DNA from: a virus
Lineage: Duplodnaviria > Heunggongvirae > Uroviricota > Caudoviricetes
Strand: one strand, 5' to 3'
IMG/VR virus record: IMGVR_UViG_3300017650_000009
Length of the DNA: 64,000 nucleotides
Shown here: piece by piece, positions 18,839 to 28,161 of the stretch
Numbering within the stretch: the first letter of the stretch is position 1
Layout: each line of letters opens with the position of its first letter
Notes under the pieces: generated by a model
Seen by the model: the letters and a program-made list of their open reading frames with translations, nothing else
Told to the model about the DNA's origin: nothing
The model's database searches: none
Program-made: the position numbers and the translations under genes

Positions 18839-20059
18839 ATGACATTTCATTTCCCAAAGCTTGCAACAGTTGAACCATTGCTTGCAGCTATCATTGATAT
18901 GCCAGAGATCAACGTAAACGAGGATCATGAGAACGGTCTCGGCGTTGTCATGTATAACGTGGCATTTGAGGAAACCTTCCTTAATCCATTTGCGACGGAT
19001 GATCCTGCAGAACGTGCACGACGTATTCTTCTACGTGAAGCGCGTGGCATCAAGTTTGATCTCAAGACTAAGCGCATTGTTTCTCGTCCATATCACAAGT
19101 TCTTTAATGTGAATGAACGCGATGAAACTCAAGCGCATGTAATTGATTGGACTCAGCCACATATCATCTTGGAGAAACTGGATGGTTCCATGCTTACGCC
19201 ATATGTAAGTCCATCTGGTGAAATCAAGTGGATGACTAAGCGTGGTGTAACAGAAGTTGCAAACAATGCATTGGACTTCTTCCACAAGCACCCACACTAC
19301 GAGGATTTCTGCCGTCGTATGTTCAACAAGAATTTGACGCCGATCTTCGAATGGTGTACTCGCCGCCAGCGGATCATCGTCGATTATGGTCCAACTGACC
19401 GTATGGTTCTTACTGCGATTCGCGACAACGTTTCCGGCGATTATTTCCGCTACGATGATATGGTTGGCATCGCACGAGACAACAATCTGGATTATGTTCG
19501 GAAGTTGGACTTCACTGTAACCAACGTAAACGAATTTCTTCAGCAGACTCGAGAAATCGAAGGTGAAGAAGGTTACATCGTTCGGTTCGATACCGGTCAC
19601 ATGTATAAGGTTAAGGGCGAGTGGTATTGCCGCTTGCATAAGACTTTTGACGCGCTCCGTTTCGAGAAGGACATTATCCGTTTGATTCTCGAGGGTCAGC
19701 TGGATGACTTGCGTCCGTTTTTGATTCCAACGATGTTGTCGGCAGTTGATCTGTTCGCACATGACATTCGCGTTGGGTTGCGTTCAAATGCACTAGCTAT
19801 CGTCGATTACGCAAATAAGTATCGAGGAAACACTACGAAGTTTGATTTCGTCAAGCTAGTACAAGCCGATGCACAGATGCAGCCGTTCAACACCCATGTG
19901 TTCCGTGCGTTTGATCGCGATTTGAATGTGGATGAAGTTTTTGAACAGCTTGTGTTTAATGTGTTGAAGAAGTCTCATACGCAGACACAAGTTGACGAAA
20001 TTCGATTCTTGTTCGGCGGAAAGAATTGGTATGACTACACTAGTATGCCAACAGAATAA
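18839..20059 (+). CDS. RNA ligase 1 (T4 Rnl1 family)
   Basis: REARG, KFFNVNE, EKLDGS (motif I), FEW, EGYIV, KVKG.WY. Confidence 0.92.
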   Translation: MTFHFPKLATVEPLLAAIIDMPEINVNEDHENGLGVVMYNVAFEETFLNPFATDDPAERARRILLREARGIKFDLKTKRIVSRPYHKFFNVNERDETQAHVIDWTQPHIILEKLDGSMLTPYVSPSGEIKWMTKRGVTEVANNALDFFHKHPHYEDFCRRMFNKNLTPIFEWCTRRQRIIVDYGPTDRMVLTAIRDNVSGDYFRYDDMVGIARDNNLDYVRKLDFTVTNVNEFLQQTREIEGEEGYIVRFDTGHMYKVKGEWYCRLHKTFDALRFEKDIIRLILEGQLDDLRPFLIPTMLSAVDLFAHDIRVGLRSNALAIVDYANKYRGNTTKFDFVKLVQADAQMQPFNTHVFRAFDRDLNVDEVFEQLVFNVLKKSHTQTQVDEIRFLFGGKNWYDYTSMPTE

Positions 20060-22800: not shown

Positions 22801-23256
22801 ATGCCTGCAACCTTTATCCCACAAGTCGGCAAACAATACGAATTAACGGCCGAATGGACAACAGATCTTTCGTGGGCCAAGCGCAATCTCGTACTCCTAC
22901 GGAATCTCAAATATACTGGAAAGAAAGCCCAACTAGTGGGCAAATATTATGTCTATAATAAGACAACTGGTCAAATTGATTATGACGAAAATGGTAAAGC
23001 AATAGTTGAAGAACGCTTTATTAATAAAACGGTACCCAACCCATTGTTCAAAGATGATGAAGGAAATATGGTTCCTGTTAGTGTGAGTTTCCCTAAGAAC
23101 TCAGTTATAGAGTTGACAAAATACCACACATCATATAACGGTTATATAAGTTTTGTTTGGCTCAAAGTCATCACATGCAGTGATAGCAGATTTACAGGTC
23201 GTTGCATTGAAGTGAATTTAGAGCAATTCAATGGAGTGGAGCTTAAGGAAATATGA
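22801..23256 (+). CDS. hypothetical protein
   Basis: GAGGA SD; promoter TTGACT-N18-TATCTT 22746-22775. Confidence 0.7.
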   Translation: MPATFIPQVGKQYELTAEWTTDLSWAKRNLVLLRNLKYTGKKAQLVGKYYVYNKTTGQIDYDENGKAIVEERFINKTVPNPLFKDDEGNMVPVSVSFPKNSVIELTKYHTSYNGYISFVWLKVITCSDSRFTGRCIEVNLEQFNGVELKEI

Positions 23257-23672
23257 AATTCAGGGTTGAAAGTCGAGGCACCATAAAGGGTATCACACCC
23301 CGTGAGAAACATGTCATCATTAGCATTAGCGATGATGTGGATATGCAACTCAATGATGTGGGCTCGGACACAACCCAAGATGTTCTTTTCCTTCATTTTC
23401 ATGATACAAACGATTACAAACCGGGCTTCACTACCTTTAATGTAGATCATGCTGATAAGATATTGGATTTTTACCAGCGATACGTGGGTGAAACTGAAAT
23501 GTTCATTGCCCATTGTTATGCAGGAATGTGTCGGAGTCCAGCTGTTATTGCAGCTTTACAGAAGATCAACATGGGCAATGATGATGTTTGGTTTAAAACC
23601 AAGCGTCCAAATAGTTTGGTTTATAACATTCTACTTATGCGCGCATATGAGCGTGGGATATATAAGATCTAA
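23253..23672 (+). CDS. protein-tyrosine/dual-specificity phosphatase-like protein
   Basis: HCYAGMCRS (HCx5R), FHD, PN. Confidence 0.85.
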   Translation: MKFRVESRGTIKGITPREKHVIISISDDVDMQLNDVGSDTTQDVLFLHFHDTNDYKPGFTTFNVDHADKILDFYQRYVGETEMFIAHCYAGMCRSPAVIAALQKINMGNDDVWFKTKRPNSLVYNILLMRAYERGIYKI

Positions 23673-24410: not shown

Positions 24411-24781
24411 TGACAGATTATCTTGCAACTGCAATTCTCCCAAATGAGACACGGGTTACTCTCATTGAGAGTCAAGATAATGTGATTAATTCAAAAATCA
24501 TTGCAGAAATCCATTTACATTTACCCTATCGGATACCACGCAAGGATCTAGAAATATCTAATATTGCAGCTCTTGAAGGGTTGTCAAAATTACAAGCAAT
24601 ATCTGAGCGTCAAGCACAAATTGAAGAATTTCTCAACTCGACTGGACCTTGTAGATTTTCAGATTCCACAAAGTCGGGTTTTGCGAATTTCAATAGCAAA
24701 GGTGTATGGGCTTATTTCATGGGCAACATATATACAAGGGATTTGAAAATAATTACCGGACTTAAATTGGTTTTCGGTTGA
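24410..24781 (+). CDS. hypothetical protein
   Basis: TAATG overlap; ends LKLVFG. Confidence 0.55.
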   Translation: MTDYLATAILPNETRVTLIESQDNVINSKIIAEIHLHLPYRIPRKDLEISNIAALEGLSKLQAISERQAQIEEFLNSTGPCRFSDSTKSGFANFNSKGVWAYFMGNIYTRDLKIITGLKLVFG

Positions 24782-24834
24782 CTAATAAACGGTCCCATAA
24801 TAACGTATGGAAACATTAACAAAGGAGATACAAA

Positions 24835-25320
24835 ATGTCGTATTAGCAAGCACTAGCAACCCGAGCTCATAACGGGACAAATGAAGTTACCCTCCAGGGC
24901 ATTCCTGCCCAATTTGAAGATCTTGCAGCGTTCGAAGCAGCAAGTGATACTCTTCGCATTTACAGCATTATTCGTGGTGATCTAGAAATGACACCAGGAA
25001 AGATGGCAAGTCAGGCTTGTCATGCTGCGAAGAACTGTGCTATCCTGGCCCAACAGTATGCGCCAGACCTACTCCAGACTTATCAGGGTTTGGATTTCAT
25101 TGGCACTCAAATCATCCTCAAAGCAAAAAACGAACAAGCCATTCTCCGTGCATATGAAGAAGCAAAGTCTGCTGGTCTGATCTGTTCACTTATCGTTGAT
25201 AGCGGTCATGTCATGCTTCCGTATTTCACTGGCGCGCCTATTATCACTGGTCTTGGTATTGGTCCTTGCACTAGAGAGCAAGCTCATTCAATCACCAAAC
25301 GTTTTGGAGTAGTAGGATGA
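24835..25320 (+). CDS. pth2: peptidyl-tRNA hydrolase type 2 with in-frame TAG at codon 4
   Basis: AAGGAG SD then ATG TCG TAT TAG CAA; same frame gives IYSIIRGDLEMTPGKMASQACHA...IVDSG...TGLGIGP Pth2 signature; promoter TTGACT 24778. Confidence 0.8.
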
Positions 25321-26231: not shown

Positions 26232-27497
26232 ATGAAGAAGATACCCTTACATAGTCTGGTACTAATGGTCGGCCCATCGGGCGCTGGCAAGAGCACCATT
26301 GTTGAAGAGCATTTCACTGACTACGAAGTCATTAGCTCTGATGCAATCCGCCACGAACTGGTTGGTGAATTCCAACGTCAGGACGTTAATCAAACAGTGT
26401 TCCAGGAACTCTTCCGTCGTACACGTTTGAAGCTGGAATTGGGTGAACGAGTGATTGTGGATGCAACAAATTTGCGTCGACAGGATCGCATGGCAATTGT
26501 AGAGATCGGGACAGAAATCAATGTTCCAATCTTTTACGTTGTTGTGAACCGTCCACTCGAGGAAAAGCTCAAGACTGCTGGATGGCGTGAAGATGTTCCT
26601 GGTCTTATTGAGCGTCACGATAAGTTATTTTTGGATAACGAACGTGACATCCTAAGGGGTGATGGTTTTGCAACTGTCATCGACACTCGAAAGGAAGAGT
26701 TCCGTACTATCGGAAAGCTTCCATTAGGAGACATTGGACCACATGTTTTGGATCTTGGATTCAAGGGTGTGATGGCACTCGGAGATGTGCATGGTATGCG
26801 CGAATCACTTCGTAGTGCGATGGAATGGGCAACTGCTCGCAACTTGTTCATGGTCTTCCTCGGTGACATCATCGATTATGGTCCAAACTCTTTGGAATGT
26901 GTGGACCTCGTGCATGATGTTATCATCCGTGGTCGCGGTGCAATGACACTCGGTAATCATGAGAAGAAAATCGAACGTTGGTTGGGCCAGGACCGCAAAG
27001 GAGAAGTTAAGCTGAAGTTGAGCGATGGAAATCGGGCAACCACTCGGCTAGTGCAGGCACTGGGTTCTCTTGAACGTACTCGGTTCGAAAATAAGTTCTA
27101 CTCGCTGTTGAACTTGTCCAAGAACCACATTTTGCTCGGCGATATCATGTTCACGCATGGTGGTGCAGAGCCCGAAATGTTCAAGACCACAGTGTCAAGA
27201 CTTCACGGCCGACTCGAAAGTATTGCTCTTTATGGGGAAGTTGATCCCGTTAACAAGTTCAATGCTGATGGCTACCCAAATCGTATCTACGAATGGGTTA
27301 ACCGCATTCCACAAGGAAAGCAAGTCATTGTGGGTCATGATATCCGTAGCACGGTAAAGCCACTTGTGGTTTCCGGCGCTAAGGGAGGTGAAGCAATTTT
27401 CTTGGACACCGGTTCAGGAAAGGGCGGACAGCTTTCGACCGCACATATCATCCACTCGGATGGTCGTTGGAAGGTTGAAGCATTTTCGACTCACTAG
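26232..27497 (+). CDS. polynucleotide kinase-phosphatase (P-loop kinase plus metallophosphoesterase)
   Basis: GPSGAGKST, SSDAIR, VDATN; GDVHG, GDIIDYGP, GNHE, THGG, GHD, LDTG. Confidence 0.9.
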   Translation: MKKIPLHSLVLMVGPSGAGKSTIVEEHFTDYEVISSDAIRHELVGEFQRQDVNQTVFQELFRRTRLKLELGERVIVDATNLRRQDRMAIVEIGTEINVPIFYVVVNRPLEEKLKTAGWREDVPGLIERHDKLFLDNERDILRGDGFATVIDTRKEEFRTIGKLPLGDIGPHVLDLGFKGVMALGDVHGMRESLRSAMEWATARNLFMVFLGDIIDYGPNSLECVDLVHDVIIRGRGAMTLGNHEKKIERWLGQDRKGEVKLKLSDGNRATTRLVQALGSLERTRFENKFYSLLNLSKNHILLGDIMFTHGGAEPEMFKTTVSRLHGRLESIALYGEVDPVNKFNADGYPNRIYEWVNRIPQGKQVIVGHDIRSTVKPLVVSGAKGGEAIFLDTGSGKGGQLSTAHIIHSDGRWKVEAFSTH

Positions 27498-27532: not shown

Positions 27533-27603
27533 GCAGTAATAACTATGGATAACATACTTCAACTAAATATGAGGTAAGAAGTCCTAAAACTTTGGTGAGT
27601 AAA

Positions 27604-28161
27604 ATGGCTGACACACTTATACTAAACGCAGATGCACAACCAATGGGATTCGTCCCACTCAGCACCCTTAACTGGGAAGATTCCGTAAAACTGATGTTTT
27701 TGGATCGCGTTGAGATTGTGGCTGAATATGCGGAATGGGAAGTTTCCAGTCCAAGTATTACGCTTAAGGTTCCAAGCGTTCTAATGAATCACGACTTTAT
27801 CAACATGGCACGTGGCGTCAAGTTGTCGAGCAAGAACATCAAGCTCCGTGATTCCTATAAGTGTCAGTATTGTGGCGTTGACTGCAAGCACGATCATTCT
27901 CTACTAACGATGGACCACGTTGTTCCTCGTGCAAGAGGTGGCAAGTCCAACTGGACCAACCTTGTTGCAGCTTGTACTCCTTGTAACTTGAAGAAGGCGC
28001 ACTACGACAAGATGAAGCCGGTTCGTGCTCCAATAAAGCCGACTTATTACCAGCTTGTTGATAAAGCGCGTCAGTACCCAATTCAAATCCCTCATGAAAG
28101 TTGGATAGATTTCATGGGGTGGGATAGGTCACTAGTCACAGTGTCCGGAAAATACAAATAA
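27604..28161 (+). CDS. HNH endonuclease (McrA-like)
   Basis: LILNAD, RD.YKCQYCG, TMDHVVPRARGG, WTNLVAACTPCN. Confidence 0.9.
   Translation: MADTLILNADAQPMGFVPLSTLNWEDSVKLMFLDRVEIVAEYAEWEVSSPSITLKVPSVLMNHDFINMARGVKLSSKNIKLRDSYKCQYCGVDCKHDHSLLTMDHVVPRARGGKSNWTNLVAACTPCNLKKAHYDKMKPVRAPIKPTYYQLVDKARQYPIQIPHESWIDFMGWDRSLVTVSGKYK

Follow-up and report, generated by a model that had tools for sequence, protein, structure and literature searches.

Introduction

Recoded phages using genetic codes 15 or 4 have been proposed to switch on stop-bearing genes with a suppressor tRNA in a standard-code host (Borges et al., bioRxiv 10.1101/2021.08.26.457843). Orphan suppressor tRNAs are also carried by standard-code jumbo phages, with a UCA anticodon reported in Atu_ph07 (PMC6102473) and CUA in XacN1 (PMC5852040) and AP-J-162 (PMC11242549), and the passages of these papers that describe them name no target. 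An early internal stop is present in prfB, encoding release factor RF2 (PMC12421855), and enlarged anticodon loops complementary to a four-base word characterise SufD/SufJ-type and engineered quadruplet tRNAs, natural quadruplet use being expected to be very rare (PMC9094753).

We analysed a 64,000-nucleotide stretch of phage DNA (IMG/VR IMGVR_UViG_3300017650_000009; hereafter ‘the window’) carrying a peptidyl-tRNA hydrolase gene (pth2) with an in-frame stop near its start, together with homologues of this gene. The idea that a phage suppressor tRNA unlocks in-frame stops is the one outlined in the preprint on recoded phages; here, however, the standard code is kept, gating was detected in a single gene, searches returned no release factor, the gate codon swaps between TAG, TGA, TAA and four-base words along with the tRNA, and the module also occurs on megaplasmids. 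The orphan tRNAs of jumbo phages are of the same kind, and one of their carriers, Atu_ph07, is directly related to the window. Like prfB as described in the cited text, pth2 encodes a translation factor and is interrupted early by a stop, and some members need a +1 shift at a stop followed by C; its product, however, belongs to the Pth2 family rather than to the release factors, the majority of members (that of the window included) require in-frame read-through, and bypass tracks a dedicated tRNA, not a fixed slippery codon. Whereas SufD, SufJ and quadruplet tRNAs, in the account cited, arise by suppressor mutation or engineering, those linked to pth2 are wild-type and conserved, have 9-nt loops and occur together with a gene needing the shift, their +1 activity being predicted. 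Neither stop-gated Pth2 nor natural quadruplet keys were found in the literature searched, mostly main texts of open-access papers, although supplementary tables could mention them.

The pth2 locus and its product

The window derives from a jumbo phage of the Atu_ph07/Phosso kind, in which TAG still serves as a stop; Phosso and Atu_ph07 are the best named matches (about 71% identity, syntenic). The read-through frame of pth2 runs on the + strand from ATG at 24,835 to TGA at 25,318–25,320, the true gene end, which overlaps the ATG of the next gene. It opens with ATG TCG TAT TAG CAA: a three-codon leader, Met-Ser-Tyr (24,835–24,843), preceded by a Shine-Dalgarno sequence (AAGGAG, 24,822–24,827; 7 nt 5′ of the ATG), then TAG at codon 4 (24,844–24,846; the gate). 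Behind this lie an open N-terminal spacer (24,847–24,951), variable and kept only in Phosso and phage G001, the first Pth2 beta strand (LRIYSIIR; 24,952–24,975) and the PF01981 domain (24,958–25,305). The SD, the ATG, the TAG and the open frame with its first strand had been noticed in a sequence-only reading of the window, and each of these is present. The same reading proposed that the gene has its own promoter, of which a clear −35-like hexamer stands (TTGACT, 24,778–24,783, + strand, overlapping the TGA of the upstream gene; TTGAC recurs at about the same position in several relatives); no clear −10 follows at 16–18 nt and a promoter scan called nothing at 24,778.

The read-through product has 161 residues and matches PF01981 at residues 42–157 (E 2e-20; 73.4 bits against a cut-off of 23). 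All seven PDB sequences that it matched are Pth2 or Pth2-like, and it shares sequence family and secondary structure with solved Pth2 enzymes (e.g. 1q7s, 2zv3, 1rlk, 1xty). The AlphaFold model (mean pLDDT 88) has four strands and four helices, with L40–R47 as the first strand, in which Y43 and R47 do not vary among the 29 homologues aligned; K56, Q60, H63, D122 and T138 are invariant across the clade. Where solved Pth2s carry the Thr of DAGxT the window has Val126, and nearly all clade sequences Val or Ile, within a segment (HVxPPHFxG) that replaces DAGxTQ. Lys, Asp and Thr of Pth2 are presumably the catalytic residues, and of these the clade retains the Lys and the Asp without exception. Pth2 activity is predicted for the gated clade, and the Thr replacement and the HVxPPHF segment suggest that its substrate may be other than peptidyl-tRNA. 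Archaeal Pth2 is able to cleave fMet-tRNA.

Neighbouring genes of the window at 18,839–20,059, 23,253–23,672, 26,232–27,497 and 27,592–28,161 are syntenic with Phosso/Atu_ph07 genes annotated as RNA ligase, tyrosine phosphatase, metallophosphatase and HNH nuclease, and by this synteny the surroundings of pth2 appear tRNA-repair-like. Elsewhere in Atu_ph07, the region 211,880–214,846, matching a 1012-residue Phosso protein, has TAA and TGA 15 nt apart in mid-alignment, indicating a split gene or an insertion.

Conservation of the block among homologues

Homologues were gathered from viral, metagenome and genome contigs, the metagenome set being the best 80 from 44 of 64 parts. Fragments were set aside, as were further hits to a contig already represented and copies that were identical or nearly so, leaving 101 (related) clade sequences that were labelled by hand. 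Ninety are blocked near the start, by TAG (69), TGA (2), TAA (1), a +1 site (17) or a block of unclear type (L140), and the remaining 11 are uninterrupted. The first stop lies at codons 3–16 (mode 3) and 10–68 codons before the domain, and some genes have two in-frame stops of one type. The expectation that related phages would keep a stop here was borne out: in Phosso and in all seven of the viral relatives first compared, an SD and an ATG are followed by an in-frame TAG at codons 4–10, and the stop of Atu_ph07 is TGA, at codon 7. The eight distant phage Pth2 genes compared are all uninterrupted. The second of two TAGs is CAG in L137 and L138, while their close relatives L136, L139, L142, L144 and L145 keep TAG.

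In a quick tree (113 sequences, 122 columns; two clade sequences omitted as too short after parsing), 99 sequences form one distinct clade (SH-aLRT 83). The TGA, TAA and +1 forms are scattered among TAG sequences in different subclades; L340 (TGA) is on a long branch, and a tree of this kind does not fix the number of independent gate switches. Ten of the 11 uninterrupted genes form a single nested group (support 100). This group (L116, L117, L124, L129, L179, L180, L362, L363, L368 and L370), found in genomes and plasmids of Proteobacteria, no longer has the gate or the tRNA.

Suppressor tRNAs matched to in-frame stops

The conserved block covaries with a matching tRNA encoded by the same element. 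For TAG, a CUA tRNA was identified in 53 of 69 cases (47 in the flank, two at a relaxed threshold, three elsewhere in the record and one CUA-like sequence adjoining pth2), including 10 of the 11 records that are at least 90% complete. The 16 cases without one comprise 12 with only 1–3.5 kb of flank (the window among them), three incomplete records (L317 being represented by L349, which is identical to it) and the complete 543-kb genome G013 (TAG at codon 3), in which no CUA tRNA was found in the regions with Rfam tRNA hits. Two tRNAs of G013 (L080, L316) have a long hairpin in the anticodon arm (G013:C1:79179-79289 and 80141-80252). No tRNA gene was found within the 64 kb of the window, and the CUA tRNA of G001 gave only partial matches, to other tRNAs, in the contigs of four sequencing runs.

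Where the stop differs, so does the anticodon. Both TGA genes are accompanied by a UCA tRNA, which in Atu_ph07 has a short arm, the whole genome being without a CUA tRNA, and in L340 lies 2.8 kb upstream on the same strand. The gene with two TAAs (L343) has a UUA tRNA 224 nt upstream on the same strand, and no CUA tRNA was found in its record (89% complete). No mismatched suppressor tRNA was found in any of the 101 flanks, nor any suppressor tRNA beside the 11 uninterrupted genes. Outside the clade, L091 and XacN1 have CUA tRNAs together with an uninterrupted Pth2, that of L091 (G018:C1:27434-27508) lying immediately 3′ of the gene.

The bodies of these tRNAs differ widely among elements. Insertion of selenocysteine or pyrrolysine was considered and rejected, since the bodies are ordinary cloverleaves, the Pyl and SeC labels given by ARAGORN follow the anticodon only, and no hairpin is conserved behind the gate (z-scores −1.7 to +1.5 in all 22 sequences folded, without a consensus fold). 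In L328, L335 and L341 the CUA tRNA gene itself lies in frame within the pth2 leader, between two in-frame TAGs, such that translation of the leader would compete with excision of the tRNA. Just 3′ of the gated pth2 in L314 (1944-2020), L335 (4908-4986) and L347 (10402-10480) are tRNA-like genes with a short hairpin, capped by a GNRA tetraloop (GGAA, GCAA), in place of the anticodon loop; these are probably non-decoding mimics.

Four-base sites and tRNAs with 9-nt anticodon loops

In the +1 class, found on megaplasmids and in some phages, a leader with SD and ATG runs into a stop, and the Pth2 frame resumes one base further on. It comprises 26 loci: 17 of the labelled sequences, the fragment L155 and eight plasmid loci, obtained from nine of 15 plasmid records (the Variovorax one is uninterrupted). 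For 14 of the 26, covering five words, we found a tRNA with a 9-nt anticodon loop whose central four bases are complementary to the word at the site: GCUA for TAGC (seven loci), GUCA for TGAC (one), CCUA for TAGG (one), AUUA for TAAC (one) and AAUG or GAUG for CATT (four), with wobble required for AUUA–TAAC and GAUG–CATT. Frameshift-suppressor tRNAs of the SufD/SufJ type have 8-nt loops. Enlarged loops with a four-base match occur in these relatives and not in the window.

A covariance model built from two such tRNAs returned the tRNA expected for the site as its top hit in Mesorhizobium SP-1A and as its second in Sphingomonas 3-13AW; both had been predicted beforehand, and both lie on the contig carrying pth2, 100–200 kb away. 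A lengthened arm was uncommon in background tRNAs, being seen in 14 of the 281 that could be measured (210 could not), most of these by eye mis-registered D arms. The 12 loci without a matching tRNA comprise nine with ≤3.4 kb of flank, one with a GCUA-containing tRNA-like stretch that ARAGORN does not call, and the +1 genes of Pararhizobium BT-229 and pRlX5, for which no matching tRNA was among the top hits. BT-229 does carry an extended-arm tRNA (G025:C3:201988-202065; L443:189-266) with AUG(C) in its loop, a mismatch to its TAGC-gated pth2, and this may key another gene. On the Bosea plasmid pANAM02, serS (L438:1-226) precedes the gated pth2 and its AAUG tRNA by ~2.7 kb, and the serS product might charge this key.

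In pBASL58, reading TGAC as one step gives a single 183-residue frame, although a frame that is open under a chosen code is no proof of its use. Nucleotides 3′ of the +1 word (CTCTTGCG...CGG...GACCGC) are kept across distant elements (L110, L119, L122, L127, L134, L361, L365–L367, L436, L439–L441, L459 and L460), without a common fold.

Because block and anticodon change together on the same element, the enzyme is likely made only by read-through with a private tRNA. We therefore consider it very probable that full-length Pth2 is translated only when the phage’s own suppressor tRNA reads the stop at codon 4 of the window gene. Natural quadruplet decoding within the module is, from the site words and loops, probable.

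Alternative explanations of the early stop

The sequence-only reading had held that UAG must be passed for the full enzyme to be made, by a suppressor tRNA or through limitation of RF1, in a weak UAG-C context; the suppressor option is strongly backed by the covariation described above, and the remainder fared less well. In its most general form the other option is a sensor of release-factor scarcity without a dedicated tRNA, in which near-cognate host tRNAs, or a +1 slip as in prfB, pass the block when RF1 or RF2 is short. A stop codon does lie within or abutting every gate, G013 has TAG with no CUA tRNA found, and one site, CAT TGA C, resembles that of prfB (CTT TGA C). Such a sensor does not account, however, for an anticodon that changes with the gate across eight forms. 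The base after the stop in the 73 in-frame genes is G in 45, A in 24 and C in only four, so that a weak UAG-C context is not a general feature. The codons before +1 sites vary (TCG, ATG, TTG, TTA, ACG, CAG, CAC, AGC, AGA), arguing against P-site slippage, and a phage release factor, a further suggestion, is lacking (PF00472 in none of five genomes of relatives). As TGA, TAA or a four-base word can take the place of TAG, in one form the sense word CATT, and a matching tRNA accompanies each change, RF1 limitation does not appear to be the main switch, and we regard a sensor without its own tRNA as unlikely. Competition with the release factor must nevertheless set the level of read-through by the suppressor tRNA, through which termination stress may still act.

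A start 3′ of the stop, at a non-canonical codon or by re-initiation, would make the short ORF merely a coupling leader. Databases annotate M52 or codons further downstream (pth2 of both Phosso and Atu_ph07 is annotated from a downstream ATG), and in three genes (L126, L135, L331) an ATG between stop and first strand permits bypass. Against this, the other 70 of the 73 in-frame genes have no such ATG, and in the window a scan found no ATG, GTG or TTG from the TAG to 24,988, as had been claimed. The product started at ATG 24,988 (M52) is truncated, as the sequence-only reading also held: it loses strand L40–R47, which precedes M52 in the AlphaFold model and contains the invariant Y43 and R47. 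Furthermore, leader and Pth2 share one frame in every in-frame gene, and in the others the shift between them is exactly +1 and is paired with a matching tRNA, making a downstream start quite improbable.

The phage might instead be recoded, with TAG a sense codon (code 15) and pth2 one of many recoded genes, and relatives do carry CUA tRNAs, as recoded phages are described to do. However, TAG terminates six of 77 segments of the window and 84 of 639 of Phosso, and in 726 alignments between the window, Phosso and Atu_ph07 the 19 stops listed were by eye antisense, at edges or not TAG. A single-genome screen for gates flagged pth2 alone among the 77 window segments; it missed pth2 in both Atu_ph07 and Phosso, so its sensitivity is limited and pth2 is not proven to be the sole target. 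In a screen for similarity across stops, swamped by antisense frames, only pth2 resembled by eye a sense-strand case. Within their limited sensitivity, these screens of the window and its relatives turned up no further gene with a genuine internal TAG, and neither many gated genes nor depletion of TAG was seen; recoding is very improbable. A sequencing error or decaying pseudogene, which a stop at codon 4 would normally signal, is refuted for practical purposes, as the TAG is unchanged in assembled contigs (not raw reads) of all four runs examined, from four studies (none flagged as a possible source of the window, and one with 13 other differences over 901 bases), and is kept in viral relatives and labelled homologues, with the domain intact behind it over about 40–80% protein identity and the block persisting while its position shifts.

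Discussion

Under the preferred explanation, decoding of the block by the element’s own tRNA, ribosomes in the window phage would start at ATG 24,835 and mostly release Met-Ser-Tyr at UAG, the 161-residue enzyme being made in proportion to the charged suppressor tRNA competing with RF1. More generally, the tRNA would decode the block in competition with a release factor, or with tRNA-His at CATT, and enzyme output would follow the amount of charged key. By homology with G001, the CUA tRNA of the window phage would lie outside these 64 kb. The diversity of tRNA bodies and the position of the gate in a variable leader suggest that the identity of the inserted residue is unimportant.

A key reading amber would affect other host genes than one reading opal, ochre or a four-base word, so a shared target outside the module is unlikely, and the module looks self-contained. 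Short minigenes cause peptidyl-tRNA drop-off. We tentatively favour a feedback circuit as its purpose, in which a hydrolase made in step with a miscoding tRNA keeps that tRNA in check, either by stripping it of its charge or by recycling peptidyl forms of it that have dropped off. Alternatively, the gate may serve purely to limit the dose, or to set the timing, of a harmful enzyme, an option to which we give somewhat less credence. A bolder reading sees a mobile lock-and-key module of megaplasmids and phages, in which a Pth2-like gene is locked by a codon of its own and opened by a tRNA encoded on the same element. Lock and key would have been re-cut many times, the hydrolase would act back on its tRNA, and natural 9-nt-loop tRNAs would read UAGC, UGAC, UAAC, UAGG and CAUU in normal expression; on balance we think this picture probably correct.

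The amber form alone extends the set of suppressor-gated phage genes, while a swappable single-gene key with four-base forms is unmatched in the literature searched. Orphan suppressor tRNAs of standard-code jumbo phages, including the cultured Atu_ph07 and Phosso, gain a concrete target: the in-frame TGA at codon 7 of Atu_ph07 pth2 is a concrete candidate for its UCA tRNA, whereas the CUA tRNAs of XacN1, whose Pth2 is uninterrupted, are not accounted for by this gene. Current annotations truncate gated pth2 genes and call their tRNAs Pyl, Sec, Ser, Ile or Asp. The +1 class suggests that wild-type tRNAs decode four-base words in a programmed way, and offers a source of evolved quadruplet and suppressor tRNAs, with a new loop design, for expansion of the genetic code. 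As a logic of gene control, the module would let a single gene be read under a genetic code of its own, possibly an intermediate on the way to recoding of a whole genome.
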